Of a stretch of DNA of 64,000 bases, positions 14,241 through 55,809 are shown one piece after another. Positions within the stretch are counted from its first letter, which is position 1, and each line of letters begins with the position of its first letter. Origin of the DNA: Escherichia coli (GTDB lineage: Bacteria > Pseudomonadota > Gammaproteobacteria > Enterobacterales > Enterobacteriaceae); NCBI RefSeq assembly GCF_016026235.1, contig NZ_CP065613.1; one strand, 5' to 3'. Both the position numbers and the translations under genes were made by a program. The notes beneath the pieces are model-generated. The model worked only from the letters and a program-made list of their open reading frames with translations, was not told the DNA's origin and made no database searches.

Positions 14241-14258
14241 TACCCAATTTTTCTGAAT

Positions 14259-32331: not shown

Positions 32332-33615
32332 ATGGAATCCCTGACGTTACAACCCATCGCTCGTGTCGATGGCACTATTAATCTGCCCGGTTCCAAGAGC
32401 GTTTCTAACCGCGCTTTATTGCTGGCGGCATTAGCACACGGCAAAACAGTATTAACCAATCTGCTGGATAGCGATGACGTGCGCCATATGCTGAATGCAT
32501 TAGCAGCGTTAGGGGTAAGCTATACGCTTTCAGCCGATCGTACGCGTTGCGAAATTATCGGTAACGGCGGTCCATTACACGCAGAAGGTGCCCTGGAGTT
32601 GTTCCTCGGAAACGCCGGAACGGCAATGCGTCCGCTGGCGGCAGCTCTTTGTCTGGGTAGCAATGATATTGTGCTGACCGGTGAGCCGCGTATGAAAGAA
32701 CGCCCGATTGGTCATCTGGTGGATGCGCTGCGCCTGGGCGGGGCGAAGATCACTTACCTGGAACAAGAAAATTATCCGCCGTTGCGTTTACAGGGCGGCT
32801 TTACTGGCGGCAACGTTGACGTTGATGGCTCCGTTTCCAGCCAATTCCTCACCGCACTGTTAATGACTGCGCCTCTTGCGCCGGAAGATACGGTGATTCG
32901 TATTAAAGGCGATCTGGTTTCTAAACCTTATATCGACATCACACTCAATCTGATGAAGACGTTTGGTGTTGAAATTGAAAATCAGCACTATCAACAATTT
33001 GTCGTAAAAGGCGGGCAGTCTTATCAGTCTCCGGGTACTTATTTGGTCGAAGGCGATGCATCTTCGGCTTCTTACTTTCTGGCAGCAGCAGCAATCAAAG
33101 GCGGCACTGTAAAAGTGACCGGTATTGGACGTAACAGTATGCAGGGTGATATTCGCTTTGCTGATGTGCTGGAAAAAATGGGCGCGACCATTTGCTGGGG
33201 CGATGATTATATTTCCTGCACGCGTGGTGAACTGAACGCTATTGATATGGATATGAACCATATTCCTGATGCGGCGATGACCATTGCCACGGCGGCGTTA
33301 TTTGCAAAAGGCACCACCACGCTGCGCAATATCTATAACTGGCGTGTTAAAGAAACCGATCGCCTGTTTGCGATGGCAACAGAACTGCGTAAAGTCGGTG
33401 CGGAAGTAGAAGAGGGGCACGATTACATTCGTATCACTCCACCGGAAAAACTGAACTTTGCCGAGATCGCGACATACAATGATCACCGGATGGCGATGTG
33501 TTTCTCGCTGGTGGCGTTGTCAGATACACCAGTGACGATTCTTGATCCCAAATGTACGGCCAAAACATTTCCGGATTATTTCGAGCAGTTGGCGCGGATT
33601 AGCCAGGCAGCCTGA
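32332..33615 (+). CDS. aroA: 3-phosphoshikimate 1-carboxyvinyltransferase (EPSP synthase)
   Basis: 427-aa ORF recognised as AroA ([23 protein letters not shown]). Confidence 0.95.
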
Positions 33616-33661
33616 ATGAACAACGGGCAATAAATAGCCAAATCTTTCTTTATCAAAACGT

Positions 33662-33674
33662 CGGCACATTGTCG
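33662..33674. repeat. 13-bp target-site duplication, left copy, of IS4 copy 1 (cggcacattgtcg)
   Basis: Identical 13-mer directly abuts both ends of the element (second copy at 35101..35113). Confidence 0.85.
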
Positions 33675-35100
33675 TAATGCCAGTCAGTTAAGCAACTGAC
33701 TGGCTCTTTTTCGGGGCTGTGGGGTATTTCCAGGGCCTCTCCTTTACCACTCTCGGGAAGGCCCTTCCCCTTCTCGTCGGTAATTTCACAAGTTGTCCCA
33801 TACTTGCAAGATCGCGCATCAGCTCCGGTATACGTCCCGGTGAAGCGCCCTGCAATGTCATCAGCATTCTCATCACCATTCCGCATGATTCTGAGAAACT
33901 CAGTTGATTCGGCCAGTAACCTTTCAGATGTTCCGCCATTTTAATCATCTGATATCTCACCAGATTATAAGCCAGTAAGACACCCCACAGCTCTTGCTCC
34001 ACAAGCTCCGGCTTTTTACTTCTCAGCGTCAGCCTGCTCAGTTGCATCGTCTGTTTTATCTCCCTGTATCCCAGTTCGATTTCCCAGCGATGACTGTACA
34101 GATCCGCCATTTCTCCTCCGGGGAAGCGCATGGCGTCCGTCATCGACGTCAGCAGATGGCAGACTTTTCCTTTGCGCGTCACGGTCAGCAGGCGGGCTGT
34201 CACTTCATTTCCCAGTCCCGGCCACTTTTTTCGTGCCTGCGGGCTGGTTTTCAGCTTCACCAGATGATCGCCTTTACCCAGTTTTCTGAGCTCTTCATAT
34301 TGCGCTCCCTTTCTGAGAGGTATCATCCAGTGGCGGTGTTCTCCCGCCAGGCTCCAGGCATTTAACAGTCCCAGTGAGTAATAACCTTTATCCATTAACG
34401 TCAGAGTGTTATCGCCGGTTTGTTCTATAAGTTGCTCAGCAAGCTCATTTTCGCTGTTCTTCATCGTGCCGAAGGCTGCAGCCGTCAGCAGATGGCTGGT
34501 CAGTTCCATCTGGCAGACCATTTTGACCTGCGGGTAGAGCGCCGGGTTCCCGGCATGTGTCTGGCGGGGGAAGGCTGCATCGTTCTCTGGTGTATCCGGT
34601 GTGCGCCAGAACACACCATCGATGGCCAGCAGGGTCAGGCCGCACCAGTGCGGATGCGGCGTGGCGTTATGCCAGAGCTGCGCTGTTTTCGTGAACACGC
34701 GGCGGACAGCCTCACTTCCCAGGCGCTGGCGGGCCTGAATAACGGCACTGGGGGCAACGAAGGGGCGATTGCCCGGCAGCATGATGTCCAGGCGATTCAC
34801 AATCTGGTGAAGAGGTTCTTTACGCTCAAGCGCCATGCCAACAATACACCAGACCATCATTTCGAGGGGAAGACGGCGCTTGCGTAGCGTTACAGTACCT
34901 GATTCGGCAAGGCAACGAGAGATGAGTTCGGGGTCGAGGTAATCCCCCAGAGAAGTCAGTGGGTTACGCAGAGAATCGTAACGGGATACCAGATCAAGAG
35001 CCTGTCCAATGTGCATAAAAAAATCCGGAAACAAGTGAGCGTTTCCGGATTCTTACACAGCCACTGGATCGGTCAACTGATCCTTAACTGATCGGCATTA
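33675..35100 (-). mobile_element. Insertion sequence IS4, copy 1 (1426 bp)
   Basis: Imperfect 18-bp terminal inverted repeats (TAATGCCAGTCAGTTAAG / TAATGCCGATCAGTTAAG), single DDE transposase ORF, flanking 13-bp direct repeats; interrupts the aroA-loiP intergenic region. Confidence 0.93.
33688..35016 (-). CDS. insG: IS4 transposase
   Basis: 448-aa ORF (to 35034); 442 aa from the Met at [10 protein letters not shown]; recognised as IS4 family transposase. Confidence 0.9.
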
Positions 35101-35113
35101 CGGCACATTGTCG
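35101..35113. repeat. 13-bp target-site duplication, right copy, of IS4 copy 1
   Basis: cggcacattgtcg immediately after the right IR. Confidence 0.85.
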
Positions 35114-35222
35114 GCGTTTTTTTTCGGACCTTGTGAGTCATTTTGATTAATGGTAGCGTCGCTTGTCAATGTAATTTGTTGATACATAATATTTATATAT
35201 GATTAATCAACGGATGATTCAC

Positions 35223-35987
35223 ATGAAGAATACTAAATTACTGCTGGCGATTGCGACCTCTGCAGCATTACTGACAGGGTGTCAAAATACCCACGGTATT
35301 GATACCAATATGGCTATCAGCTCCGGTTTAAATGCCTATAAAGCAGCAACATTAAGCGATGCCGATGCAAAAGCGATTGCCAATCAGGGCTGTGCCGAAA
35401 TGGACAGCGGCAATCAAGTCGCAAGTAAATCCAGCAAGTACGGTAAACGTCTGGCAAAAATCGCCAAAGCATTGGGTAACAATATTAATGGCACGCCGGT
35501 CAACTATAAGGTTTATATGACCAGCGACGTCAACGCATGGGCGATGGCGAACGGCTGTGTCCGTGTCTACAGTGGCCTGATGGACATGATGAATGACAAC
35601 GAAATTGAAGGTGTTCTGGGCCATGAACTGGGCCACGTCGCGTTGGGTCACTCGCTGGCTGAAATGAAAGCTTCTTATGCGATCGTTGCCGCACGCGATG
35701 CCATTTCAGCTACCAGCGGTGTGGCTTCCCAGCTTTCCCGCTCACAATTGGGTGATATCGCAGAAGGCGCTATTAATGCTAAATACTCCCGTGATAAAGA
35801 GTCCGAAGCAGATGATTTCTCCTTTGATCTGTTGAAGAAACGTGGCATCAGCACCCAGGGGCTGGTTGGCAGCTTTGAAAAACTGGCTAGTCTGGATGGC
35901 GGTCGCACCCAGTCCATGTTTGACTCTCACCCACCATCAACAGAGCGTGCGCAACACATCCGTGATCGTATCGCCTCTGGTAAGTAA
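35223..35987 (+). CDS. loiP: Outer-membrane metalloprotease LoiP (YcaL; M48 family lipoprotein)
   Basis: ORF trimmed to MKNTKLLLAIATSAALLTGC (lipobox) giving 254 aa; HELGH zinc motif. Confidence 0.9.
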   Translation: MKNTKLLLAIATSAALLTGCQNTHGIDTNMAISSGLNAYKAATLSDADAKAIANQGCAEMDSGNQVASKSSKYGKRLAKIAKALGNNINGTPVNYKVYMTSDVNAWAMANGCVRVYSGLMDMMNDNEIEGVLGHELGHVALGHSLAEMKASYAIVAARDAISATSGVASQLSRSQLGDIAEGAINAKYSRDKESEADDFSFDLLKKRGISTQGLVGSFEKLASLDGGRTQSMFDSHPPSTERAQHIRDRIASGK

Positions 35988-36159
35988 ATCATTGTCATCT
36001 TTCGGGCTGGTCTTCTGCCAGCCCGCTATAATTGCGCAATAAATCCCCATCTGAATACAGACAAAACTGGTTTTTGCACACAACGTTAACGATTTGTGGC
36101 GTCGGCGCGTATAATGCGCGCGGTTATGTTAACGGTACGCCTGTTTTAAGGAGATAAAG

Positions 36160-36843
36160 ATGACGGCAATTGCCCCGGTTATTACCATTGATGGCCCAAG
36201 CGGTGCAGGGAAAGGCACCTTGTGTAAGGCTATGGCGGAAGCATTGCAATGGCATCTGCTGGATTCGGGTGCAATTTATCGCGTACTGGCATTGGCGGCA
36301 TTACATCACCATGTTGATGTTGCGTCAGAAGATGCGCTGGTACCGCTGGCATCCCATCTGGATGTACGTTTTGTGTCAACCAATGGCAATCTGGAAGTGA
36401 TCCTCGAAGGGGAAGATGTCAGCGGCGAAATTCGTACTCAGGAAGTGGCGAATGCAGCTTCACAAGTCGCGGCATTCCCACGCGTTCGTGAAGCATTATT
36501 GCGTCGCCAACGCGCGTTTCGCGAATTACCAGGCCTGATTGCCGATGGCCGCGACATGGGAACAGTGGTATTCCCTGATGCGCCAGTGAAAATTTTCCTT
36601 GACGCCTCCTCGGAAGAACGTGCGCATCGCCGCATGCTACAGTTGCAGGAGAAGGGCTTTAGTGTTAACTTTGAGCGCCTTTTGGCCGAGATCAAAGAAC
36701 GCGACGACCGCGATCGTAACCGAGCGGTAGCGCCACTGGTTCCGGCAGCCGATGCTTTAGTGTTGGATTCCACCACCTTAAGCATTGAGCAAGTGATTGA
36801 AAAAGCGCTACAATACGCGCGCCAGAAATTGGCTCTCGCATAA
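36160..36843 (+). CDS. cmk: Cytidylate kinase
   Basis: 227-aa ORF, P-loop GPSGAGKGT. Confidence 0.95.
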
Positions 36844-36953
36844 GCGACCGAATTTGCAGTACCCCCGTTGCAATGGAATGACAGCGGGTATGTTAAACAA
36901 CCCCATCCGGCATGGAGCCAGGTGGACGTTAAATATAAACCTGAAGATTAAAC

Positions 36954-38627
36954 ATGACTGAATCTTTTGCTCAACTCTTTGAAGAGTCCTTAAAAGAAAT
37001 CGAAACCCGCCCGGGTTCTATCGTTCGTGGCGTTGTTGTTGCTATCGACAAAGACGTAGTACTGGTTGACGCTGGTCTGAAATCTGAGTCCGCCATCCCG
37101 GCTGAGCAGTTCAAAAACGCCCAGGGCGAGCTGGAAATCCAGGTAGGTGACGAAGTTGACGTTGCTCTGGACGCAGTAGAAGACGGCTTCGGTGAAACTC
37201 TGCTGTCCCGTGAGAAAGCTAAACGTCACGAAGCCTGGATCACGCTGGAAAAAGCTTACGAAGATGCTGAAACTGTTACCGGTGTTATCAACGGCAAAGT
37301 TAAGGGCGGCTTCACTGTTGAGCTGAACGGTATTCGTGCGTTCCTGCCAGGTTCTCTGGTAGACGTTCGTCCGGTGCGTGACACTCTGCACCTGGAAGGC
37401 AAAGAGCTTGAATTTAAAGTAATCAAGCTGGATCAGAAGCGCAACAACGTTGTTGTTTCTCGTCGTGCCGTTATCGAATCCGAAAACAGCGCAGAGCGCG
37501 ATCAGCTGCTGGAAAACCTGCAGGAAGGCATGGAAGTTAAAGGTATCGTTAAGAACCTCACTGACTACGGTGCATTCGTTGATCTGGGCGGCGTTGACGG
37601 CCTGCTGCACATCACTGACATGGCCTGGAAACGCGTTAAGCATCCGAGCGAAATCGTCAACGTGGGCGACGAAATCACTGTTAAAGTGCTGAAGTTTGAC
37701 CGCGAACGTACCCGTGTATCCCTGGGCCTGAAACAGCTGGGCGAAGATCCGTGGGTAGCTATCGCTAAACGTTATCCGGAAGGTACCAAACTGACTGGTC
37801 GCGTGACCAACCTGACCGACTACGGCTGCTTCGTTGAAATCGAAGAAGGCGTTGAAGGCCTGGTACACGTTTCCGAAATGGATTGGACCAACAAAAACAT
37901 CCACCCGTCCAAAGTTGTTAACGTTGGCGATGTAGTGGAAGTTATGGTTCTGGATATCGACGAAGAACGTCGTCGTATCTCCCTGGGTCTGAAACAGTGC
38001 AAAGCTAACCCGTGGCAGCAGTTCGCGGAAACCCACAACAAGGGCGACCGTGTTGAAGGTAAAATCAAGTCTATCACTGACTTCGGTATCTTCATCGGCC
38101 TGGACGGCGGCATCGACGGCCTGGTTCACCTGTCTGACATCTCCTGGAACGTTGCAGGCGAAGAAGCAGTTCGTGAATACAAAAAAGGCGACGAAATCGC
38201 TGCAGTTGTTCTGCAGGTTGACGCAGAACGTGAACGTATCTCCCTGGGCGTTAAACAGCTCGCAGAAGATCCGTTCAACAACTGGGTTGCTCTGAACAAG
38301 AAAGGCGCTATCGTAACCGGTAAAGTAACTGCAGTTGACGCTAAAGGCGCAACCGTAGAACTGGCTGACGGCGTTGAAGGTTACCTGCGTGCTTCTGAAG
38401 CATCCCGTGACCGCGTTGAAGACGCTACCCTGGTTCTGAGCGTTGGCGACGAAGTTGAAGCTAAATTCACCGGCGTTGATCGTAAAAACCGCGCAATCAG
38501 CCTGTCTGTTCGTGCGAAAGACGAAGCTGACGAGAAAGATGCAATCGCAACTGTTAACAAACAGGAAGATGCAAACTTCTCCAACAACGCAATGGCTGAA
38601 GCTTTCAAAGCAGCTAAAGGCGAGTAA
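36954..38627 (+). CDS. rpsA: 30S ribosomal protein S1
   Basis: 557-aa ORF with repeated S1 domains; high codon bias. Confidence 0.97.
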
Positions 38628-38786
38628 TTCTCTGACTCTTCGGGATTTTTATTCCGAAGTTTGTTGAGTTTACTTGACAGATTGCAGGTTTCGTCCTGTA
38701 ATCAAGCACTAAGGGCGGCTACGGCCGCCCTTAATCAATGCAGCAACAGCAGCCGCTTAATTTGCCTTTAAGGAACCGGAGGAATC

Positions 38787-39071
38787 ATGACCAAGTCAGA
38801 ATTGATAGAAAGACTTGCCACCCAGCAATCGCACATTCCCGCCAAGACGGTTGAAGATGCAGTAAAAGAGATGCTGGAGCATATGGCCTCGACTCTTGCG
38901 CAGGGCGAGCGTATTGAAATCCGCGGTTTCGGCAGTTTCTCTTTGCACTACCGCGCACCACGTACCGGACGTAATCCGAAGACTGGCGATAAAGTAGAAC
39001 TGGAAGGAAAATACGTTCCTCACTTTAAACCTGGTAAAGAACTGCGCGATCGCGCCAATATTTACGGTTAA
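38787..39071 (+). CDS. ihfB: Integration host factor beta subunit
   Basis: 94-aa [19 protein letters not shown] fold. Confidence 0.96.
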
Positions 39072-39096
39072 GTTTTTACTCAAACTTGAACGCGAG

Positions 39097-39124
39097 AAAA
39101 GCACCTGTCGGGTGCTTTTTTCAT
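39097..39124 (+). terminator. Rho-independent terminator of ihfB
   Basis: aaaaGCACCtgtcGGGTGCttttttc. Confidence 0.8.
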
Positions 39125-39277
39125 TTCTCTAATCTGGAACTGGAAGCTGCCTCGCAGAGTTTTGAGCAGTTTTCACCCTTTCGTTAAATTCTTCTGAATG
39201 TGCCTCGGGGAACGCAAAATTCCCACCAGACAACCGCTCAACAAAGTTGCACACTTTCCATAAACAGGGAGGGGTGC

Positions 39278-41542
39278 ATGAAAATAACGACAGTCGGCGT
39301 ATGCATAATTTGCGGAATTTTTCCGTTGCTGATTTTGCCCCAATTGCCTGGGACATTAACCCTTGCGTTTCTGACTCTCTTCGCCTGCGTACTGGCATTT
39401 ATCCCTGTTAAAACCGTCCGTTATATCGCGCTGACGTTGCTGTTTTTCGTTTGGGGCATATTATCAGCAAAGCAAATTTTGTTGGCAGGAGAAACCTTAA
39501 CTGGCGCGACGCAGGATGCAATTGTTGAGATCACTGCTACTGACGGCATGACCACTCATTACGGTCAAATTACTTATCTACAAGGTCGACGTGTATTCCC
39601 TGCGCCAGGCCTTGTGCTGTATGGCGAATATCTTCCGCAAGCGGTTTGTGCCGGACAACTGTGGTCAATGAAACTCAAAGTTCGTGCCGTTCATGGTCAA
39701 CTTAATGATGGCGGCTTTGATAGCCAGCGTTATGCCATTGCCCTGCATCAGCCACTCACCGGCCGCTTTCTGCAGGCAAGTGTTATTGAACCGAATTGTA
39801 GCCTGCGTGCACAGTATCTGGCGTCACTACAAACAACGCTGCAACCCTATCCGTGGAATGCGGTTATTCTTGGTTTAGGTATGGGGGAACGGTTATCCGT
39901 CCCTAAAGAAATCAAAAATATCATGCGTGATACTGGAACGGCGCATTTAATGGCGATATCGGGATTGCACATCGCTTTTGCGGCGTTGCTGGCTGCCGGA
40001 CTCATTCGCAGTGGACAAATTTTTCTGCCTGGGCACTGGATCCACTGGCAAATGCCATTAATTGGCGGTATCTGCTGTGCTGCTTTTTATGCCTGGCTGA
40101 CGGGAATGCAACCTCCTGCATTGCGTACCGTTGTGGCGCTTGCTACGTGGGGAATGCTTAAGTTAAGTGGGCGACAGTGGAGTGGCTGGGATGTATGGAT
40201 ATGTTGTCTGGCGGCAATTTTGCTGATGGATCCTGTTGCCATTCTCTCGCAAAGTTTATGGCTCTCTGCCGCTGCGGTCGCGGCATTGATATTTTGGTAT
40301 CAGTGGTTTCCCTGTCCTGAGTGGCAACTGCCGCCGGTATTGCGTGCAGTTGTTTCCCTCATCCATCTGCAACTGGGAATCACACTTCTGCTTATGCCCG
40401 TGCAAATCGTCATATTTCATGGCATTAGTCTGACCTCGTTTATTGCAAATCTATTAGCAATTCCCTTGGTGACATTTATCACGGTTCCGTTGATCCTCGC
40501 CGCGATGGTTGTGCATTTAAGCGGGCCGTTAATCTTGGAGCAAGGGTTATGGTTTCTTGCCGACCGGTCTTTGGCTTTACTTTTCTGGGGGTTAAAGAGT
40601 TTGCCAGAAGGGTGGATCAACATTGCTGAACGTTGGCAATGGCTATCATTTTCCCCATGGTTCTTACTGGTGGTATGGCGATTAAACGCCTGGCGAACGT
40701 TGCCAGCAATGTGTGTGGCTGTAGGCTTGCTGATGTGCTGGCCGCTGTGGCAAAAACCTCGACCTGACGAGTGGCAGGTGTACATGCTTGATGTCGGGCA
40801 AGGGCTGGCAATGGTGATAGCCAGAAACGGCAAAGCGATTCTCTATGACACGGGACTGGCCTGGCCCGAAGGGGATAGTGGGCAACAACTGATTATCCCC
40901 TGGCTCCACTGGCATAATCTTGAACCGGAAGGCGTTATTCTGAGTCATGAACATCTGGATCACCGGGGAGGGCTGGACTCAATATTGCACACATGGCCGA
41001 TGTTATGGATCAGAAGTCCGTTAAACTGGGAACATCATCAGCCCTGTGTGCGTGGCGAAGCGTGGCAATGGCAAGGATTGCGTTTCAGCGTGCACTGGCC
41101 TTTACAAGCTAGCAACGATAAAGGAAATAACCATTCCTGTGTGGTTAAGGTTGATGACGGGACGAATAGCATTCTTCTAACCGGTGATATTGAAGTCCCC
41201 GCTGAACAAAAGATGCTAAGCCGTTACTGGCAGCAAGTGCAGGCAACATTGCTTCAGGTACCTCACCATGGCAGTAATACCTCATCATCGTTGCCATTAA
41301 TTCAGCGAGTGAATGGAAAAGTGGCACTCGCATCGGCATCGCGCTATAACGCATGGCGACTGCCCTCTAACAAAGTTAAGCATCGCTATCAACAACAGGG
41401 TTATACGTGGCTTGATACTCCTCATCAGGGGCAACTAACGGTCAATTTTTCAGCACAAGGCTGGCGGATTAGGAGCCTCAGGGAGCAAATTTTACCTCGT
41501 TGGTATCATCAGTGGTTTGGCGTGCCAGTGGATAACGGGTAG
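39278..41542 (+). CDS. ycaI: ComEC/Rec2-family inner-membrane protein YcaI (with metallo-beta-lactamase domain)
   Basis: ORF trimmed to MKITTVGVCIICGIFPLLIL (754 aa); polytopic membrane N-terminus and C-terminal HxHxDH motif (SHEHLDHRGG). Confidence 0.88.
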   Translation: MKITTVGVCIICGIFPLLILPQLPGTLTLAFLTLFACVLAFIPVKTVRYIALTLLFFVWGILSAKQILLAGETLTGATQDAIVEITATDGMTTHYGQITYLQGRRVFPAPGLVLYGEYLPQAVCAGQLWSMKLKVRAVHGQLNDGGFDSQRYAIALHQPLTGRFLQASVIEPNCSLRAQYLASLQTTLQPYPWNAVILGLGMGERLSVPKEIKNIMRDTGTAHLMAISGLHIAFAALLAAGLIRSGQIFLPGHWIHWQMPLIGGICCAAFYAWLTGMQPPALRTVVALATWGMLKLSGRQWSGWDVWICCLAAILLMDPVAILSQSLWLSAAAVAALIFWYQWFPCPEWQLPPVLRAVVSLIHLQLGITLLLMPVQIVIFHGISLTSFIANLLAIPLVTFITVPLILAAMVVHLSGPLILEQGLWFLADRSLALLFWGLKSLPEGWINIAERWQWLSFSPWFLLVVWRLNAWRTLPAMCVAVGLLMCWPLWQKPRPDEWQVYMLDVGQGLAMVIARNGKAILYDTGLAWPEGDSGQQLIIPWLHWHNLEPEGVILSHEHLDHRGGLDSILHTWPMLWIRSPLNWEHHQPCVRGEAWQWQGLRFSVHWPLQASNDKGNNHSCVVKVDDGTNSILLTGDIEVPAEQKMLSRYWQQVQATLLQVPHHGSNTSSSLPLIQRVNGKVALASASRYNAWRLPSNKVKHRYQQQGYTWLDTPHQGQLTVNFSAQGWRIRSLREQILPRWYHQWFGVPVDNG

Positions 41543-41578
41543 AATATGCGGCTATTTCAACAAATGCTGGTTTTTTGA

Positions 41579-43327
41579 ATGCATAACGACAAAGATCTCT
41601 CTACGTGGCAGACATTCCGCCGACTGTGGCCAACCATTGCGCCTTTCAAAGCGGGTCTGATCGTGGCGGGCGTAGCGTTAATCCTCAACGCAGCCAGCGA
41701 TACCTTCATGTTATCGCTCCTTAAGCCACTTCTTGATGATGGCTTTGGTAAAACAGATCGCTCCGTGCTGGTGTGGATGCCGCTGGTGGTGATCGGGCTG
41801 ATGATTTTGCGTGGTATCACCAGCTATGTCTCCAGCTACTGTATCTCCTGGGTATCAGGAAAGGTGGTAATGACCATGCGTCGTCGCCTGTTTGGTCACA
41901 TGATGGGAATGCCGGTTTCATTCTTTGACAAACAGTCAACGGGTACGCTGTTGTCACGTATCACCTACGATTCCGAACAGGTTGCTTCTTCCTCTTCCGG
42001 CGCACTGATTACTGTTGTGCGTGAAGGTGCGTCGATCATCGGCCTGTTCATCATGATGTTCTATTACAGTTGGCAATTGTCGATCATTTTGATTGTGCTG
42101 GCACCGATTGTTTCGATTGCGATTCGCGTTGTATCGAAGCGTTTTCGCAACATCAGTAAAAACATGCAGAACACCATGGGGCAGGTGACCACCAGCGCAG
42201 AACAAATGCTGAAGGGCCACAAAGAAGTATTGATTTTCGGTGGTCAGGAAGTGGAAACGAAACGCTTCGATAAAGTCAGTAACCGAATGCGTCTTCAGGG
42301 GATGAAAATGGTTTCAGCCTCTTCCATCTCTGATCCGATCATTCAGCTGATCGCCTCTTTGGCGCTGGCGTTTGTTCTGTATGCGGCGAGCTTCCCAAGT
42401 GTCATGGATAGCCTGACTGCCGGTACGATTACCGTTGTTTTCTCTTCGATGATTGCACTGATGCGTCCGCTTAAATCGCTGACCAACGTTAACGCCCAGT
42501 TCCAGCGCGGTATGGCGGCTTGTCAGACGCTGTTTACCATTCTGGACAGTGAGCAGGAGAAAGACGAAGGTAAGCGCGTGATCGAGCGTGCGACTGGCGA
42601 CGTGGAATTCCGCAATGTCACCTTTACTTATCCGGGACGTGACGTACCCGCCTTGCGTAACATCAACCTGAAAATTCCGGCAGGGAAAACGGTCGCTCTG
42701 GTTGGACGCTCTGGTTCAGGTAAATCAACCATCGCCAGCCTGATCACGCGTTTTTACGATATTGATGAAGGCGAAATCCTGATGGATGGTCACGATCTGC
42801 GCGAGTATACCCTGGCGTCGTTGCGTAACCAGGTTGCTCTGGTGTCGCAGAATGTCCATCTGTTTAACGATACGGTTGCTAACAACATTGCTTACGCACG
42901 GACTGAACAGTACAGCCGTGAGCAAATTGAAGAAGCGGCGCGTATGGCCTACGCCATGGACTTCATCAATAAGATGGATAACGGTCTCGATACAGTGATT
43001 GGTGAAAACGGCGTGCTGCTCTCTGGCGGTCAGCGTCAGCGTATTGCTATCGCTCGAGCCTTGTTGCGTGATAGCCCGATTCTGATTCTGGACGAAGCTA
43101 CCTCGGCGTTGGATACCGAATCCGAACGTGCGATTCAGGCGGCACTGGATGAGTTGCAGAAAAACCGTACCTCTCTGGTGATTGCCCACCGCTTGTCTAC
43201 CATTGAAAAGGCAGACGAAATCGTGGTCGTTGAGGATGGTGTCATTGTGGAACGCGGTACGCATAACGATTTGCTTGAGCACCGCGGCGTTTACGCGCAA
43301 CTTCACAAAATGCAGTTTGGCCAATGA
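41579..43327 (+). CDS. msbA: Lipid A flippase MsbA (ABC transporter)
   Basis: 582-aa ORF, TMD plus NBD ([17 protein letters not shown]). Confidence 0.96.
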
Positions 43328-44310
43328 TCGAAAAAATCTGGTCTGGTGAATCCCCTTTGTGGCGGCTATTGCTGCCACTCTCCTGGTTGTATGGCCTGGT
43401 GAGTGGCGCGATCCGTCTTTGCTATAAACTAAAACTGAAGCGCGCCTGGCGTGCCCCCGTACCGGTTGTCGTGGTTGGTAATCTCACCGCAGGCGGCAAC
43501 GGAAAAACCCCGGTCGTTGTCTGGCTGGTGGAACAGTTGCAACAGCGCGGTATTCGCGTGGGGGTCGTATCGCGGGGATATGGTGGTAAGGCTGAATCTT
43601 ATCCGCTGTTATTGTCGGCAGATACCACCACAGCACAGGCGGGTGATGAACCTGTGTTGATTTATCAACGCACTGATGCGCCTGTTGCGGTTTCTCCCGT
43701 TCGTTCTGATGCGGTAAAAGCCATTCTGGCGCAACACCCTGATGTGCAGATCATCGTAACCGACGACGGTTTACAGCATTACCGTCTGGCGCGTGATGTG
43801 GAAATTGTCGTTATTGATGGTGTGCGTCGCTTTGGCAATGGCTGGTGGTTGCCGGCGGGGCCAATGCGTGAGCGAGCGGGGCGCTTAAAGTCAGTTGATG
43901 CGGTAATCGTCAACGGCGGTGTCCCCCGCAGCGGTGAAATCCCCATGCATCTGCTGCCGGGTCAGGCGGTGAATTTACGTACCGGTACGCGTTGTGACGT
44001 TGCTCAGCTTGAACATGTGGTGGCGATGGCAGGGATTGGGCATCCGCCGCGCTTTTTTGCCACGCTGAAGATGTGCGGCGTACAACCGGAAAAATGTGTA
44101 CCGCTGGCCGATCATCAGTCTTTGAACCATGCGGATGTCAGCGCGTTGGTAAGCACCGGGCAAACGCTGGTAATGACTGAAAAAGATGCGGTGAAATGCA
44201 GGGCCTTTGCAGAAGAAAATTGGTGGTATTTGCCCGTTGACGCACAGCTTTCAGGTGATGAACCAGCGAAACTGCTTGCGCAACTAACCTCGCTGGCTTC
44301 TGGCAACTAG
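43324..44310 (+). CDS. lpxK: Tetraacyldisaccharide 4'-kinase
   Basis: 328-aa ORF; ATGA overlap with the msbA stop. Confidence 0.95.
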
Positions 44311-44346
44311 TTACGCCGCGGCAGCGTTCGATTGATGGAGTCATGA

Positions 44347-45579
44347 ATGTCGCTGCCGCACCTCTCCCTTGCTGATGCGCGTAATCTTCACCTTGCCGCG
44401 CAAGGCCTGTTAAACAAACCCCGCCGTCGAGCGTCGTTGGAGGATATTCCGGCAACGATCTCCCGCATGTCCTTGCTGCAAATCGATACCATCAATATTG
44501 TTGCCCGTAGTCCATATCTGGTGCTTTTCAGTCGTCTGGGAAATTATCCTGCCCAGTGGCTGGATGAGTCTCTGGCGCGTGGCGAATTAATGGAATACTG
44601 GGCGCATGAAGCCTGCTTTATGCCACGCAGCGACTTTCGTCTTATTCGCCACCGCATGCTGGCACCTGAAAAAATGGGCTGGAAATACAAAGACGCCTGG
44701 ATGCAGGAACATGAGGCGGAAATTGCACAGTTAATTCAGCATATTCATGATAAGGGGCCGGTACGTTCAGCCGATTTTGAGCATCCTCGTAAAGGTGCAA
44801 GCGGCTGGTGGGAATGGAAGCCGCATAAACGGCATCTGGAAGGTTTATTTACTGCCGGAAAGGTGATGGTGATTGAACGGCGCAACTTCCAGCGCGTTTA
44901 TGATTTAACCCACCGTGTCATGCCTGACTGGGATGATGAGCGCGATCTCGTTTCGCAAACAGAAGCAGAAATCATCATGCTGGATAACAGTGCGCGTAGC
45001 CTGGGAATATTCCGCGAACAGTGGCTGGCAGATTACTATCGGCTGAAACGTCCGGCACTGGCGGCGTGGCGCGAAGCGAGGGCTGAACAGCAGCAAATCA
45101 TTGCTGTGCATGTTGAAAAATTGGGCAATCTTTGGCTGCATGCTGATTTGCTGCCGCTACTCGAGCGTGCGCTGGCCGGAAAGCTCACTGCAACGCACAG
45201 CGCGGTACTTTCGCCTTTTGATCCTGTTGTCTGGGATCGCAAACGCGCAGAGCAGCTTTTTGATTTTAGCTACCGGCTGGAGTGCTATACCCCAGCGCCG
45301 AAACGCCAGTATGGCTATTTTGTTCTGCCATTATTACATCGTGGGCAATTAGTTGGGCGAATGGATGCCAAAATGCATCGCCAGACAGGCATCCTTGAAG
45401 TTATCTCTCTGTGGTTACAGGAAGGCATTAAACCAACGACAATGCTGCAAAAAGGGTTACGTCAGGCGATTACTGATTTCGCGAGCTGGCAGCAGGCAAC
45501 GCGGGTGACATTAGGACGCTGCCCGCAAGGTCTCTTTACTGATTGCCGCACTGGCTGGGAAATAGACCCCGTCGCATAA
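44347..45579 (+). CDS. ycaQ: Winged-helix DNA glycosylase YcaQ
   Basis: 410-aa ORF at the conserved position. Confidence 0.88.
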   Translation: MSLPHLSLADARNLHLAAQGLLNKPRRRASLEDIPATISRMSLLQIDTINIVARSPYLVLFSRLGNYPAQWLDESLARGELMEYWAHEACFMPRSDFRLIRHRMLAPEKMGWKYKDAWMQEHEAEIAQLIQHIHDKGPVRSADFEHPRKGASGWWEWKPHKRHLEGLFTAGKVMVIERRNFQRVYDLTHRVMPDWDDERDLVSQTEAEIIMLDNSARSLGIFREQWLADYYRLKRPALAAWREARAEQQQIIAVHVEKLGNLWLHADLLPLLERALAGKLTATHSAVLSPFDPVVWDRKRAEQLFDFSYRLECYTPAPKRQYGYFVLPLLHRGQLVGRMDAKMHRQTGILEVISLWLQEGIKPTTMLQKGLRQAITDFASWQQATRVTLGRCPQGLFTDCRTGWEIDPVA

Positions 45580-45630
45580 ATGATTATGATAAGATTTATG
45601 CATTCATAACCCGATCCATCTGGAGGAACT

Positions 45631-46556
<926 letters not shown>

Positions 46557-46709
46557 TTTCACTTCACGACACTCCAGCCAATTTTGGGAGGAGTGTCGTA
46601 CCGTTACGATTTTCCTCAATTTTTCTTTTCAACAATTGATCTCATTCAGGTGACATCTTTTATATTGGCGCTCATTATGAAAGCAGTAGCTTTTATGAGG
46701 GTAATCTGA

Positions 46710-47603
46710 ATGGAACAGCTGCGTGCCGAATTAAGCCATTTACTGGGCGAAAAACTCAGTCGTATTGAGTGCGTCAATGAAAAAGCGGATACGGCGTTGT
46801 GGGCTTTGTATGACAGCCAGGGAAACCCAATGCCGTTAATGGCAAGAAGCTTTAGTACGCCCGGAAAAGCCCGACAACTGGCATGGAAAACCACCATGCT
46901 GGCAAGAAGTGGGACTGTCCGTATGCCGACTATTTATGGTGTGATGACGCATGAAGAACACCCCGGCCCTGATGTCCTGCTACTGGAGCGGATGCGTGGT
47001 GTTTCGGTGGAGGCACCAGCCCGAACACCAGAACGCTGGGAACAGCTCAAAGACCAAATCGTTGAAGCCTTACTGGCCTGGCACCGTCAGGACAGTCGCG
47101 GTTGCGTCGGCGCGGTCGACAATACTCAGGAAAATTTCTGGCCCTCATGGTACCGGCAACATGTTGAAGTGCTATGGACCACGCTCAATCAGTTCAATAA
47201 CACCGGTCTGACGATGCAGGATAAGCGGATCCTGTTTCGCACTCGCGAATGTCTCCCGGCATTATTTGAAGGCTTTAACGACAATTGTGTGTTGATTCAC
47301 GGTAACTTCTGTTTACGCAGCATGCTGAAAGATTCGCGCAGCGATCAGTTACTGGCGATGGTCGGGCCGGGACTAATGCTTTGGGCACCGCGAGAATACG
47401 AACTGTTCCGACTAATGGATAATTCTCTGGCGGAAGATTTGCTCTGGAGTTACCTGCAACGCGCGCCAGTGGCGGAGTCGTTCATCTGGCGGCGTTGGTT
47501 GTATGTGTTATGGGATGAAGTTGCGCAACTGGTTAATACCGGACGATTTAGTCGGCGCAACTTCGATCTGGCATCAAAATCACTCTTGCCGTGGCTCGCC
47601 TGA
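46710..47603 (+). CDS. ycbJ: Putative kinase/phosphotransferase YcbJ
   Basis: 297-aa ORF at the conserved position. Confidence 0.85.
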   Translation: MEQLRAELSHLLGEKLSRIECVNEKADTALWALYDSQGNPMPLMARSFSTPGKARQLAWKTTMLARSGTVRMPTIYGVMTHEEHPGPDVLLLERMRGVSVEAPARTPERWEQLKDQIVEALLAWHRQDSRGCVGAVDNTQENFWPSWYRQHVEVLWTTLNQFNNTGLTMQDKRILFRTRECLPALFEGFNDNCVLIHGNFCLRSMLKDSRSDQLLAMVGPGLMLWAPREYELFRLMDNSLAEDLLWSYLQRAPVAESFIWRRWLYVLWDEVAQLVNTGRFSRRNFDLASKSLLPWLA

Positions 47604-48359
47604 CGGACCTTTCAGCCACTGCCAGATGCGGCCAAGCGTTTCATAGCCAACACGATCGCTATGCATCAGCCAGACCGGAGAAGGGATTGCCCGTTCCCAC
47701 GGATTAAGCGGCGAGTCGATGGCCAACTGATTCGCCGGGGCTGGCAGCGGATTTAACCCTTCCTGCTGAAAAAAGATCATCGCCCGCGGCAAATGAGACG
47801 CGGATGTCACCAGCAGGAAAGGGGCGTCACCAATCTCCTGTTTCACTGCCGCAGCTTCTTCTTCGGTATCTTTTGGCAAATCCAGAGTGATAATTTGCTC
47901 ACGCGGCACGCCCAGCGATTGCGCAACTCTGGCACCTACTTCCGCTGTACTCACCGTATTGGTTTTTGCTACGCCTCCCGTGAAGATCAGTTTTGATCCC
48001 GGATTTTCGCGCCATAAGCGAATACCTTCATTCAGGCGTGGCAGACTGTTATTGATTAAATTAGAGCTCGGTGCCCACTGCGGGTTCCAGGTATAACCGC
48101 CTCCGAGCACCACGATATAGTCCACTTTTTGTGAATTATTCCATGTCGGATAGGTGCTTTCGATGGGACGCAACAGGCGGTCGGCTACCGGTTGCAAACT
48201 CAATAACAAGAGTGCCAGCCACCCAATGCTAATAAAAATCTTCCCGGTTTTTTGAAAACGGCTAAACCACAGCAGTGCCAGGCCAGCGCCAATAATTAAC
48301 AACATCAGCGGAAGTGGCAGCAACATATTGCCAATCACTTTTTTCAGTGTAAAAAGCAT
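47580..48359 (-). CDS. elyC: Envelope biogenesis factor ElyC (YcbC, DUF218)
   Basis: 259-aa ORF with N-terminal TM segment; 3' end overlaps the ycbJ 3' end convergently by 24 bp. Confidence 0.88.
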   Translation of the reverse strand: MLFTLKKVIGNMLLPLPLMLLIIGAGLALLWFSRFQKTGKIFISIGWLALLLLSLQPVADRLLRPIESTYPTWNNSQKVDYIVVLGGGYTWNPQWAPSSNLINNSLPRLNEGIRLWRENPGSKLIFTGGVAKTNTVSTAEVGARVAQSLGVPREQIITLDLPKDTEEEAAAVKQEIGDAPFLLVTSASHLPRAMIFFQQEGLNPLPAPANQLAIDSPLNPWERAIPSPVWLMHSDRVGYETLGRIWQWLKGPSGEPRQE

Positions 48360-48494
48360 CCTTTCTGGTTCCTTTTTTAACCATATAGCAAGGGATCGCC
48401 AGCGATATTACACCAGACGGGTTCATTCTCGCCGTGGCTGTGACAAAATAGCGTCTTTATCAGAAAACGTCTTAGCCAACCGGTGGAGAAAGCA

Positions 48495-49280
48495 ATGCAG
48501 GATCGCAATTTTGATGATATTGCGGAAAAGTTTTCCCGTAACATTTACGGCACCACCAAAGGGCAGCTTCGACAGGCTATTCTGTGGCAGGATCTCGATC
48601 ACGTGCTGGCGGAAATGGGCCCGCAAAAACTGCGTGTGCTGGATGCTGGCGGTGGAGAAGGGCAGACCGCAATCAAAATGGCCGAGCGTGGGCATCAGGT
48701 CATTTTATGCGATCTTTCTGCGCAGATGATCGACCGCGCAAAACAGGCGGCAGAAGCAAAAGGTGTGAGCGACAACATGCAATTTATACATTGCGCCGCT
48801 CAGGATGTTGCTTCGCATTTGGAAACGCCCGTTGATCTGATATTGTTCCATGCGGTGCTCGAGTGGGTGGCCGATCCCCGCAGCGTATTACAGACCCTGT
48901 GGTCAGTGTTGCGTCCAGGCGGTGTGTTGTCGTTAATGTTCTACAATGCGCACGGCTTGCTGATGCATAACATGGTCGCCGGGAATTTTGATTACGTGCA
49001 GGCGGGAATGCCGAAAAAGAAAAAACGGACGCTTTCGCCAGATTATCCACGCGACCCGGCGCAGGTTTATCTGTGGCTGGAAGAAGCTGGTTGGCAAATT
49101 ATGGGTAAGACAGGCGTTCGCGTGTTTCATGATTATCTGCGCGAGAAGCACCAGCAGCGCGACTGCTATGAAGCATTACTTGAATTAGAAACGCGTTATT
49201 GCCGTCAGGAACCGTATATTACCCTGGGGCGTTATATTCATGTCACCGCGCGCAAACCGCAGAGCAAGGATAAAGTATGA
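48495..49280 (+). CDS. cmoM: tRNA cmo5U34 methyltransferase CmoM (SmtA), SAM-dependent
   Basis: ORF trimmed to [13 protein letters not shown] (261 aa); SAM motif LDAGGGEG. Confidence 0.9.
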
Positions 49281-50599
49281 GTGAATTTTCCCAGACAGTC
49301 CCCGAACTGGTTGCCTGGGCCAGAAAAAATGACTTCTCCATCTCGCTGCCGGTAGACCGACTCTCTTTTCTGCTGGCGGTTGCCACGCTGAACGGCGAGC
49401 GTCTGGATGGTGAAATGAGTGAAGGCGAGCTGGTGGATGCATTCCGCCATGTGAGTGATGCGTTTGAGCAAACCAGCGAAACCATCGGCGTGCGCGCCAA
49501 TAACGCGATCAACGACATGGTGCGTCAACGTCTGCTGAACCGCTTTACCAGCGAGCAGGCGGAAGGGAACGCAATTTACCGTCTGACGCCGCTCGGCATC
49601 GGCATTACTGACTACTACATCCGTCAGCGCGAGTTTTCTACGCTGCGTCTTTCTATGCAGTTGTCGATTGTGGCGGGTGAGCTCAAACGCGCAGCAGATG
49701 CCGCCGAAGAGGGCGGTGATGAATTTCACTGGCACCGTAATGTCTATGCGCCACTGAAATATTCGGTAGCAGAAATTTTCGACAGTATCGACCTGACGCA
49801 ACGTCTGATGGACGAACAGCAGCAGCAGGTGAAGGACGATATCGCCCAGTTGCTGAACAAAGACTGGCGGGCGGCGATTTCCAGCTGTGAATTGTTGCTT
49901 TCGGAAACTTCCGGAACGCTGCGTGAATTGCAGGATACGCTGGAAGCGGCAGGCGACAAATTGCAGGCTAATCTGTTGCGCATTCAGGATGCGACGATGA
50001 CCCATGACGATCTGCATTTCGTCGATCGTCTGGTGTTCGATCTGCAGAGCAAACTCGATCGTATTATCAGTTGGGGCCAGCAATCCATCGACTTGTGGAT
50101 TGGCTACGACCGCCACGTACACAAATTTATTCGTACCGCGATCGATATGGATAAAAACCGCGTCTTTGCTCAGCGGTTACGTCAGTCGGTACAAACCTAT
50201 TTTGATGAGCCGTGGGCGCTAACTTATGCCAATGCCGATCGTCTGCTGGATATGCGTGACGAAGAGATGGCACTGCGCGATGAAGAAGTGACTGGGGAAC
50301 TTCCTGAGGATCTGGAATACGAAGAGTTTAACGAGATCCGCGAACAGCTGGCGGCGATCATCGAAGAACAACTTGCCGTGTACAAAACCAGACAAGTGCC
50401 GCTGGATCTTGGTCTGGTGGTACGCGAATATCTGTCACAGTATCCGCGTGCACGTCACTTTGACGTTGCGCGCATTGTTATTGATCAGGCGGTACGTCTT
50501 GGCGTAGCGCAAGCAGATTTCACCGGACTGCCAGCGAAATGGCAGCCGATTAATGATTACGGAGCCAAGGTACAGGCGCATGTCATCGACAAATATTGA
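49277..50599 (+). CDS. mukF: Chromosome partition protein MukF (kleisin)
   Basis: 440-aa ORF; ATGA overlap with the cmoM stop. Confidence 0.96.
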
Positions 50600-51284
50600 A
50601 CAAGTGATGCCGGTTAAGCTGGCGCAGGCGCTGGCGAATCCGTTATTTCCGGCGCTGGACAGCGCCTTACGTTCAGGCCGCCATATTGGCCTCGACGAAC
50701 TGGATAATCATGCATTCCTGATGGATTTTCAGGAATATCTGGAAGAGTTTTACGCGCGTTATAACGTTGAGCTTATTCGCGCACCGGAAGGGTTCTTCTA
50801 TTTACGCCCACGTTCCACCACTCTTATCCCGCGTTCCGTCTTGTCGGAACTGGATATGATGGTCGGGAAAATCCTCTGTTATCTCTATCTCAGCCCGGAA
50901 CGGCTGGCGAATGAGGGGATTTTCACCCAGCAGGAACTGTACGACGAACTGCTCACCCTGGCCGATGAAGCAAAACTGCTGAAACTGGTGAACAACCGTT
51001 CAACCGGTTCAGACGTTGACCGTCAGAAGTTGCAGGAGAAAGTACGTTCTTCGCTCAACCGTCTGCGTCGTTTAGGCATGGTGTGGTTTATGGGCCACGA
51101 CAGCAGCAAGTTTCGCATTACCGAATCGGTGTTCCGCTTCGGAGCCGATGTGCGTGCTGGCGACGATCCCCGTGAAGCACAGCGTCGCCTGATTCGTGAT
51201 GGCGAAGCAATGCCGATTGAAAATCATCTGCAACTCAACGATGAAACCGAAGAGAATCAGCCAGATAGCGGAGAGGAAGAATAA
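50580..51284 (+). CDS. mukE: Chromosome partition protein MukE
   Basis: ORF trimmed to [21 protein letters not shown] (234 aa); overlaps the mukF 3' end. Confidence 0.92.
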
Positions 51285-54200
51285 TGATTGAACGCGGTAA
51301 ATTTCGCTCACTGACGCTGATTAACTGGAACGGCTTTTTTGCCCGAACTTTTGACCTTGACGAGCTGGTCACGACGCTTTCTGGCGGTAACGGGGCGGGT
51401 AAATCCACCACCATGGCGGCGTTCGTTACGGCGCTGATCCCCGACCTGACCCTGCTGCATTTCCGTAACACTACGGAAGCCGGGGCCACCAGCGGTTCGC
51501 GCGATAAAGGTCTGCACGGTAAGCTGAAAGCGGGTGTCTGTTATTCGATGCTCGACACCATTAACTCGCGCCACCAGCGCGTGGTGGTCGGTGTGCGTCT
51601 GCAACAGGTTGCCGGACGCGATCGTAAAGTGGATATCAAACCATTTGCCATTCAGGGACTGCCGATGTCGGTGCAGCCGACACAGCTGGTGACCGAAACC
51701 CTGAACGAACGCCAGGCGCGCGTGCTGCCGCTTAACGAGCTGAAAGACAAGCTCGAGGCGATGGAAGGCGTGCAGTTTAAACAGTTCAACTCCATTACCG
51801 ATTACCACTCGCTGATGTTCGATCTGGGCATCATCGCGCGTCGTCTGCGCTCCGCATCTGACCGTAGCAAATTCTATCGTCTGATCGAAGCTTCGCTGTA
51901 TGGCGGGATCTCCAGTGCCATTACCCGTTCTCTGCGCGACTACCTGTTGCCGGAAAACAGCGGCGTGCGTAAAGCGTTCCAGGACATGGAAGCGGCGCTG
52001 CGTGAAAACCGCATGACGCTGGAAGCGATTCGTGTCACCCAGTCGGACCGTGACCTGTTTAAGCATCTGATCAGCGAAGCTACCAACTACGTGGCGGCGG
52101 ACTACATGCGTCACGCCAACGAGCGCCGTGTCCATCTCGACAAAGCCCTGGAGTTTCGTCGCGAGCTACATACTTCGCGTCAGCAACTGGCGGCTGAGCA
52201 GTACAAACACGTCGATATGGCGCGTGAGCTGGCAGAGCACAACGGTGCCGAAGGCGATCTGGAAGCGGATTATCAGTCGGCCAGCGATCACCTGAACCTG
52301 GTGCAAACCGCACTGCGTCAGCAGGAGAAGATCGAACGCTACGAAGCGGATCTCGATGAGCTGCAGATCCGTCTGGAAGAGCAAAACGAAGTGGTGGCAG
52401 AAGCCATCGAACGCCAGGAAGAGAACGAGGTTCGTGCGGAAGCTGCCGAACTGGAAGTGGACGAGCTGAAAAGCCAGCTTGCTGACTACCAGCAGGCGCT
52501 GGACGTCCAGCAAACGCGCGCGATCCAGTATAACCAGGCGATTGCTGCGCTTAATCGCGCCAAAGAATTGTGTCATCTGCCGGACTTAACCGCCGACAGC
52601 GCCGCCGAATGGCTGGAAACCTTCCAGGCGAAAGAGCTGGAAGCGACTGAAAAAATGCTCACTCTTGAGCAGAAAATGAGCATGGCGCAAACCGCGCACA
52701 GCCAGTTTGAGCAGGCTTATCAGCTGGTGGTGGCAATCAACGGCCCGCTGGCGCGTAACGAGGCGTGGGATGTCGCTCGCGAACTATTGCGCGAAGGGGT
52801 CGATCAGCGTCACCTGGCAGAGCAGGTTCAGCCGTTGCGGATGCGCTTAAGCGAACTGGAACAGCGTCTGCGCGAGCAGCAAGAAGCTGAGCGTCTGCTG
52901 GCAGATTTCTGCAAACGTCAGGGCAAGAATTTTGATATTGATGAACTGGAAGCTCTGCATCAGGAGCTGGAAGCACGCATTGCCTCTCTTTCCGATAGCG
53001 TATCTAACGCCCGTGAAGAGCGGATGGCACTGCGGCAGGAACAGGAACAGCTGCAGTCTCGCATTCAGAGTTTGATGCAGCGTGCGCCGGTTTGGCTGGC
53101 AGCGCAAAACAGTCTCAACCAGTTGAGCGAACAGTGCGGCGAAGAGTTCACCTCCAGCCAGGACGTCACCGAATTCCTGCAACAGCTGCTGGAGCGTGAG
53201 CGCGAAGCCATTGTTGAACGCGATGAAGTGGGCGCGCGCAAAAACGCTGTCGATGAAGAGATCGAACGTTTAAGCCAGCCTGGCGGCTCTGAAGACCAGC
53301 GTCTGAATGCGCTGGCGGAGCGTTTTGGCGGCGTGCTGCTGTCAGAAATTTATGATGACGTTAGCCTGGAAGATGCGCCGTACTTCTCAGCGCTGTATGG
53401 CCCGTCACGCCACGCCATCGTGGTGCCAGATCTGTCACAGGTAACTGAACACCTGGAGGGCTTGACCGATTGCCCGGAAGATCTCTATTTGATCGAAGGG
53501 GATCCGCAGTCATTCGATGACAGCGTGTTCAGCGTTGATGAGCTGGAAAAAGCGGTAGTGGTGAAAATCGCCGATCGTCAGTGGCGTTATTCACGTTTCC
53601 CGGAAGTGCCGCTGTTTGGTCGTGCTGCGCGTGAAAGCCGTATTGAAAGCCTCCATGCCGAGCGTGAAGTGCTTTCCGAACGCTTCGCCACGCTCTCCTT
53701 TGACGTACAGAAAACCCAGCGTCTGCATCAGGCGTTCAGCCGCTTTATCGGTAGTCATCTGGCGGTGGCGTTTGAGTCTGACCCGGAAGCAGAAATCCGT
53801 CAACTGAACAGCCGTCGCGTCGAACTGGAGCGGGCGCTGAGTAATCATGAAAATGATAACCAGCAGCAGCGTATTCAATTTGAGCAGGCGAAAGAGGGCG
53901 TTACGGCGCTGAACCGCATTCTGCCGCGTCTCAACCTGTTGGCTGATGACAGCCTGGCGGATCGCGTCGATGAAATCCGCGAACGTCTGGATGAAGCCCA
54001 GGAAGCCGCGCGTTTTGTTCAGCAGTTTGGCAATCAACTGGCGAAACTGGAACCGATTGTTTCAGTGTTGCAGAGCGACCCGGAACAGTTCGAACAGTTA
54101 AAAGAAGATTACGCGTACTCTCAGCAGATGCAGCGCGATGCCCGTCAGCAGGCGTTTGCCCTGACGGAAGTGGTGCAGCGTCGTGCGCACTTTAGCTATT

Positions 54201-55744: not shown

Positions 55745-55748
55745 AATG

Positions 55749-55780
55749 AAGGCGGCAGCAATGCCGCCTTTTCTTTTTCC
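55749..55780 (+). terminator. Rho-independent terminator of mukB
   Basis: GGCGGCAGCAATGCCGCC hairpin followed by ttttcttttt; lies upstream of the IS4 insertion point and is intact. Confidence 0.75.
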
Positions 55781-55809
55781 GAAAACTCCGTTTCTGCACT
55801 AAAAAAGTG

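Follow-up and report, generated by a model that had tools for sequence, protein, structure and literature searches.

Does an insertion sequence that settles between two genes alter the expression of the downstream gene, and what decides where it settles? This question is raised by the junction between aroA and the gene that follows it in a 64,000 nt stretch of Escherichia coli DNA (contig NZ_CP065613.1 of assembly GCF_016026235.1), which we refer to as the window. The original prediction for this locus was that an IS4 copy had placed 1.4 kb of foreign DNA upstream of a gene called loiP, moving regulatory input away from it and probably blocking read-through from serC-aroA, and that a proximal promoter had been left intact.

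A Complete IS4 Copy Separates aroA From ycaL

The aroA coding sequence (32332..33615, + strand, 427 aa) is intact according to the ORF list and the RefSeq annotation of the matching locus, and ends with a TGA codon at 33613-33615. IS4 starts 59 bp past this stop codon and occupies 33675..35100 on the - strand (1426 bp), as identified from the sequence, the ORF list, the inverted repeats and the RefSeq annotation. In strain 14EC029, RefSeq describes the matching locus as aroA, “IS4-like element IS4 family transposase” (WP_000483767.1) and ycaL. The element is bounded by 18-bp imperfect terminal inverted repeats, TAATGCCAGTCAGTTAAG and TAATGCCGATCAGTTAAG, beginning TAATGCC (IRR end, 33675-33692; IRL end, 35083-35100). 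An exact 13-bp direct repeat, CGGCACATTGTCG, flanks it at 33662-33674 and 35101-35113 and represents the target duplication. The transposase ORF (33688..35034, - strand) has a TTG start in RefSeq, and the 442-aa form starts at the ATG at 35016. Thus, the length, the inverted repeats, the single long transposase ORF, the duplication and the form of the target are all those of IS4, whose target duplications measure 11-13 bp at other complete sites and exactly 13 bp for both copies in the window. The presence of a full IS4 between the 3′ end of aroA and the next gene was hereby confirmed, and the insertion is an ordinary, annotated polymorphism of a known kind.

The downstream gene (35223..35987, + strand) is intact and encodes a 254-aa M48 zinc metalloprotease lipoprotein with the lipobox LLTGC and a HELGH motif. 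The name loiP, under which it had been predicted, was not borne out; loiP is yggG, which lies elsewhere on the chromosome. At every locus inspected RefSeq names the gene ycaL (“metallopeptidase YcaL”), and it is entered as b0909 ycaL in Table S1 of Kim et al. (2012). Furthermore, two recent papers count LoiP and YcaL as two distinct M48 lipoproteins of E. coli. The YcaL protein scores 414 bits against the NCBIfam “exception” model M48_lipo_LoiP, above its cutoff of 365, and by this measure of sequence similarity the two proteins are close paralogues, which probably explains the mix-up. As the gene is ycaL, what is known about the regulation of LoiP does not apply to it. We also considered an in-frame ATG at 35199 (262-aa ORF) as the start of ycaL, and rejected it as it is absent in other genera; the annotated start at 35223 was kept.

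YcaL-like proteins with ∼56–66% identity were seen in Serratia, Rahnella, Pectobacterium, Xenorhabdus, Paraburkholderia and Halomonas, where they do not adjoin aroA. These are probably LoiP-type paralogues or relocated genes. Superficieibacter electus carries a second YcaL-like copy of the same identity class.

IS4 Interrupts the Predicted serC-aroA Terminator

To rebuild the empty site, IS4 and one copy of the repeat were removed. This yields a 168-bp aroA-ycaL spacer that is 100% identical to that of strain STEC346. The empty site reads AAAACGTCGGCACATTGTCGGCGTTTTTTTT and is laid out as AAAA CGTCGGCA CAT TGTCGGCG TTTTTTTT, that is, as a GC-rich hairpin with a stem of 8–10 bp, a 3-nt loop and a U8 tract, starting ∼40 nt past the aroA stop codon. 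The fold has a predicted energy of -15 kcal/mol and a z-score of -5 relative to shuffled sequences. In an alignment of 10 sequences from four genera, which is a small sample, 93% of the cells in the stem pair and three pairs are changed on both sides, compared with 23–61% pairing in slid controls. In the B2-phylogroup allele one G-U pair of the stem is replaced by G-C. This hairpin is the sole aroA-proximal feature of the spacer that is kept in Citrobacter, Pseudocitrobacter and Superficieibacter. The 39-nt 3′ UTR of aroA preceding it (33616..33654, + strand) is not conserved outside E. coli in the alignment of syntenic spacers, and in these three genera it is shorter and cannot be aligned. 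Based on the fold and the covariation, IS4 is predicted to sit inside the hairpin of the intrinsic (Rho-independent) serC-aroA terminator. Duncan and Coggins are said to have described an intrinsic terminator of serC-aroA in 1986.

The 13-bp duplication corresponds to the inner five stem pairs and the loop of the terminator, and each junction of IS4 consequently keeps a mini-hairpin of 5 bp. On the aroA side, the left half of the split terminator (33655..33674, + strand) comprises the A-tract at 33655-33658, the outer stem and the left copy of the duplication. On the ycaL side, the residual terminator (35101..35124, + strand) consists of the right copy at 35101-35113, GCG and the T8 tract at 35117-35124, and its stem is 5 bp long. 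This residual hairpin is predicted to lie between IS4 and the ycaL promoter and is weak, with a z-score of -1.4 in its 51-nt context. A search of 33500..35300 and its surroundings at the Rfam gathering threshold matched no family. The sole match at this threshold in the window is the enterobacterial sRNA STnc130 (14254..14388, - strand, 140 bits).

IS4 itself carries terminator-like structures at both ends. At the IRR end, a hairpin at 33679..33711 (+ strand) has a perfect 11-bp stem, GCCAGTCAGTT/AACTGACTGGC, followed by TCTTTTT. The fold of this end (33640-33715) has an energy of -22 kcal/mol and a z-score of -4.6, and it was also matched by a terminator scan and by an inverted-repeat search. 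As it meets incoming transcription from aroA, this hairpin and its U-run are predicted to take over the termination of serC-aroA transcription. At the other end, a 14-bp hairpin followed by a U-run lies directly 5′ of the transposase ATG (35019..35054, - strand; -23.5 kcal/mol, z -4.4) and is overlapped by a candidate transposase promoter, TTGACC-16-AAGAAT (35076..35049, - strand). By analogy with other IS elements, this hairpin probably shields the transposase gene against read-in transcription: the layout of the region (35014..35076, - strand) would stop or sequester transcripts reading in from outside and spare those from the element's own promoter.

The DNA Retained Upstream of ycaL Contains the Conserved Blocks and Candidate Promoters

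The stretch between IS4 and ycaL, 35101..35222, comprises exactly the 122 bp before the annotated ycaL ATG at 35223, as had been predicted; the duplicated target makes up the first 13 bp of it. Across these 122 bp there is a single difference to K-12, a T instead of a G at 35175, in a promoter spacer. For phylogenetic footprinting we used eight syntenic non-K-12 loci from Escherichia, Citrobacter, Pseudocitrobacter and Superficieibacter, leaving out the ∼60% identical matches that are not linked to aroA. Apart from the terminator, all blocks conserved across genera are found on the ycaL side of IS4. Short blocks of this kind, CGGACYTT directly after the T-tract and AATG.TA, lie in the spacer at 35125..35162 (+ strand), and a Shine-Dalgarno-like GGATGA (35212..35217, + strand) lies within the invariant block ATCAACGGATGATTCAC ATG. 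The displaced 59 bp (33616..33674) show no cross-genus conservation except in the terminator arm.

The proximal promoter that was thought to have survived the insertion, TTGTCA-16-CATAAT, is indeed present as a sigma-70 candidate matching 10/12 positions, but at 35163..35190 rather than at about 35164..35195. Chance could account for the hexamer match by itself, as the 2-kb region contains four promoter-like sites compared with 2.0 ± 1.2 in shuffled sequences. Its -35 hexamer TTGTCA is specific to E. coli and reads TTATCA in the B2 allele. An alternative candidate, TTGATA-17-ATTAAT (35179..35207, + strand), overlaps it and was proposed for a genomic-SELEX RpoD peak in the aroA-ycaL spacer of K-12 (Shimada et al., 2014; PMC3946193). 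RpoS and RpoH genomic-SELEX peaks have also been assigned to this spacer in K-12, at the position of the RpoD peak (PMC5493296). For all three holoenzymes, the resolution is too coarse to tell the aroA-proximal from the ycaL-proximal half. In Pseudocitrobacter the -10 element aligned with ATTAAT reads TATAAT or CATAAT. The TTGTCA-16-CATAAT candidate draws support from the SELEX RNA polymerase peaks in the spacer and from its conservation within E. coli. Both candidate promoters lie at least 62 bp downstream of IS4.

A divergent promoter-like site, TTGACA-18-CAAAAT (35140..35169, - strand, 10/12), points towards IS4 and aroA. This candidate is specific to E. coli and is directed at the start of the IS4 transposase gene; its -35 is also that of the candidate ycaL promoter. 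Without IS4, transcripts from this site would meet the bidirectional terminator. Two further motifs in this stretch, a sigma-E-like GGACCTT at 35126 and a CRP half-site TGTGA at 35132, were rejected because they have no matching second element and are not conserved in other genera.

IS4 Is Predicted to Have Little Effect on ycaL Expression

Kim et al. (2012) give just two K-12 transcription start sites for ycaL, at 959191 (3 reads) and 959207 (4 reads), and none within the stretch corresponding to 35101..35222. We mapped the two sites onto the window, checking against the 51-nt sequences in their table, and they correspond to 33488 and 33504 on the + strand, inside aroA, preceded by TACAAT at 33475-33480. 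They are close to the noise floor and lie upstream of both the terminator and IS4. The assignment to ycaL followed nearest-downstream-gene rules that allowed distances of 600–700 nt. The supplements of SMRT-Cappable-seq, Mendoza-Vargas 2009 and Adams 2021 contain no entry for ycaL, and that of Adams 2021 contains none for aroA.

These start sites are a reason to consider that IS4 lowers or rewires ycaL expression in a meaningful way, by removing read-through, aroA-internal starts or an aroA-proximal regulator site. Some transcripts from them may have read through the terminator and contributed to ycaL, and IS4 would end such a supply: the only starts given for the gene are upstream of the element and none is in the proximal spacer, and two extra terminator-like hairpins and 1.4 kb now lie between them and ycaL. 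However, they consist of 3–4 reads each and were assigned to the nearest gene, and a strong, conserved terminator hairpin stands between them and ycaL even in the empty site. Past the terminator arm, no conservation is seen in the displaced 59 bp; both candidate promoters lie in the retained part, and the SELEX peaks are assigned to the spacer. Thus, we find this explanation unlikely. Read-through from serC-aroA is a related case. Such transcripts can no longer plausibly reach ycaL, as was predicted, but the insertion point is the terminator hairpin itself. Since this hairpin would have limited read-through into ycaL before IS4 arrived, its “blocking” by IS4 changes little, and the effect on ycaL expression is probably small.

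We therefore favor, as the likely explanation, a simple transposition of IS4 into the serC-aroA terminator by target preference, in which the promoter region of ycaL was kept and which is most likely near-neutral. The element would have entered the loop and inner stem of the terminator, leaving 35101..35222 as the unaltered ycaL-proximal two-thirds of the 168-bp spacer, cut from its aroA-proximal third. Transcripts of aroA would now end ∼30–40 nt later, at the IRR hairpin and U-run. ycaL would keep its own promoter or promoters (35163..35207), its ribosome-binding site and all upstream blocks conserved across genera, and the weakened old terminator, a 5-bp stem followed by U8, would stand between IS4 and the ycaL promoter. 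The kept promoter and the replacement terminator for aroA make the insertion most likely near-neutral for both neighbors, and its recurrence and tolerance among E. coli genomes, described below, suggest the same.

Even a real change in ycaL expression may be tolerated, since loss of YcaL has no known phenotype: no fitness phenotype was detected in Salmonella, nor in the E. coli screens cited in that study (PMC11481492). A mobile-element lesion at the same junction is found in Salmonella SL3261, where a Tn10-derived deletion of aroA also truncates ycaL (PMC11481492; PMC3632133). This lesion differs from the present one in that it removes aroA and the 5′ end of ycaL, whereas both genes are intact here, and loss of YcaL in SL3261 is without obvious phenotype. 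None of the IS4-bearing E. coli loci inspected shows damage to ycaL, which is annotated as a normal CDS throughout. Hence the insertion is of little importance for ycaL biology, as the promoter-proximal DNA is intact, the lost input was terminator-blocked and no loss-of-function phenotype is known. The value of the analysis for this gene is corrective: the gene is ycaL and not loiP, and the event is an insertion into a terminator and not the displacement of a promoter.

A Probable Preference of IS4 for Terminator-Like Targets

To examine why IS4 landed here, IS4 ends were gathered from public metagenome contigs and 45 distinct IRL-side flanks were profiled. The flanks have an A-tract at -22..-16, with A at -18 in 41/45, are C-rich at -14..-9, and carry G at -4 in 34/45 and at -1 in 33/45. 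AAA within -24..-15 was found in 38 of the 45 flanks, compared with 12.6% of random window positions. A mirror T-tract is present at the sites for which both flanks were obtained, and many of the targets are obvious terminators, e.g., AAAAAAAAGCCCCTCCGAAGAGGGGC and AAAACCCCCAGCTAGGCTGGGGGTT. The target signature of IS4, an A-tract and a T-tract separated by ∼20 bp, is strong. The empty aroA site, AAAA-CGTCGGCACATTGTCGGCG-TTTTTTTT, fits this signature. The preference of the transposase would accordingly be for an A-tract, ∼20 bp that often form a GC-rich palindrome, and a T-tract; a bidirectional intrinsic terminator is built in the same way. We attribute the position of IS4 to this preference and not to anything about ycaL.

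A similar case is said to be the IS4 insertion in the pheST attenuator, for which Mayaux et al., in Gene (30:137) in 1984, reportedly proposed the target AAA-N20-TTT. The two insertions have in common the element, a duplication of 11–13 bp and a target in which a terminator palindrome lies between an A-tract and a T-tract spaced by ∼20 bp; they differ in the locus, which here is the serC-aroA terminator. Our compilation of 45 sites reproduces this AAA-N20-TTT rule. Hallet et al. reportedly found in 1994 that IS231A, a member of the IS4 family, prefers GGG-N5-CCC flanked by bent A/T tracts. This would likewise be an IS4-family transposase choosing a short GC-rich palindrome between A- and T-tracts, though the element, the host and the consensus are different.

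The hairpin at the left end of IS200, ACAGAAAACCCCCAGCTAGGCTGGGGGTTCC, is recurrently hit by IS4 (metagenome loci L093, L162 and others; L004:3176-3210). IS4 is thus also found inserted in the terminator-like hairpin of another IS element.

The aroA-ycaL Junction Is a Recurrent Insertion Site

We surveyed 5426 complete E. coli genomes for insertions at the junction. IS4 in the orientation seen in the window was found in 39 of them, and a flipped aroA/IS4 junction in 68, a count that rests on the aroA-side junction and includes strains with an inverted segment between two IS4 copies. The empty site, counted where one unbroken match covers 80% or more of the 313-bp query for it, was present in 5261/5426. 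In strain P27_L1_05.20 the flipped IS4 has the identical 13-bp duplication and ycaL lies directly next to it. The aroA flanks of IS4-bearing genomes show 0, 6 and 22 differences in 375 bp, and these different flank alleles suggest several insertion events. The junction is thus a recurrent hot spot for IS4 that can serve to mark strains and gives rise to IS4-mediated inversions.

The recurrence could instead have arisen because a change in aroA or ycaL phenotype was selected, or because one ancestral insertion spread by recombination. The number of carriers (107/5426, ∼2% of complete E. coli genomes) is compatible with this, and the diversity of the flanks could come from an IS4-bearing segment recombining into different backgrounds. 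However, the same 13-bp target in both orientations requires at least two events. The target signature is common to 45 unrelated sites, the second copy in the window lies in a similar target, and no ycaL phenotype is known. Therefore, we regard selection or recombination as a very improbable cause, and target preference remains the explanation we adopt. IS2, IS1 and other IS elements can supply outward or hybrid promoters, and IS2 is found even closer to ycaL in strain FDAARGOS_943, but activation of ycaL from the IRL end of IS4 is the least probable of all, since no -35/-10 combination of at least 8/12 is present on the + strand of 34950..35135, any outward transcript would meet the residual hairpin and U8 at 35101-35124, and the occurrence of both orientations fits poorly with an orientation-dependent benefit.

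Other elements were also found in the spacer. In ST2747 an IS200 lies directly after the T8 tract. In FDAARGOS_943 an IS2, interrupted by an IS5-family element and flanked by a 5-bp GTAGC duplication, lies 70 bp from the ycaL ATG; the insertion site is equivalent to window positions 35153-35157, 5 bp before the TTGTCA hexamer. Like IS4, these elements occupy the aroA-ycaL spacer at or just past the terminator and leave ycaL intact; they differ from it in their insertion points and in their transposition chemistry. A literature search found no paper on IS4 at aroA-ycaL.

About one quarter of the records (1376) carry a spacer allele that is only 80–90% identical to that of the window, e.g., APEC O2-211 with 87.9% over 313 bp. 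This is much above the typical divergence of E. coli core DNA. The divergent allele keeps the terminator, with a G-U pair changed to G-C, and the -10 region, and has TTATCA in place of TTGTCA.

Two IS4 Copies Bracket a Block of Largely Essential Genes

A second IS4 copy (55823..57248, - strand) is located between mukB and ldtD, in the same orientation as the first. The two copies have no differences in 1426 bp. The second is flanked by its own 13-bp duplication, GCACATTACGGCG, and its target, AAAAAAGTGGCACATTACGGCGCGCTTTTC, has a similar A-tract/T-tract form. The two direct copies, each with an intact duplication, bracket ∼20.7 kb of DNA with largely essential genes: cmk, rpsA, ihfB, msbA, lpxK, kdsB and mukFEB. 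FDAARGOS_943 is 100% identical to the window over 36000..55800 and has no IS4 at either site.

In strain CRE444, which has the flipped aroA copy, the aroA-proximal IS4 is followed by mukB in reverse, and the 2020S05-013 series is probably alike. This arrangement indicates that IS4 copies lying in opposite orientation at the two sites have recombined and thereby inverted the entire block. A broader, tentative idea, which we consider less likely than not, is that IS4 may be a “terminator-homing” element that targets bidirectional intergenic terminators, the same few sites, here at aroA and mukB, being hit again in both orientations and thereby seeding inversions of essential blocks such as that in CRE444. 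Such insertions would be near-neutral because the IRR end brings a replacement terminator and half of the old one stays. The bare AAA-N20-TTT consensus is old; the genome-wide picture of terminators as a “safe harbour”, together with its consequences for rearrangement, is seemingly undescribed in the literature searched.
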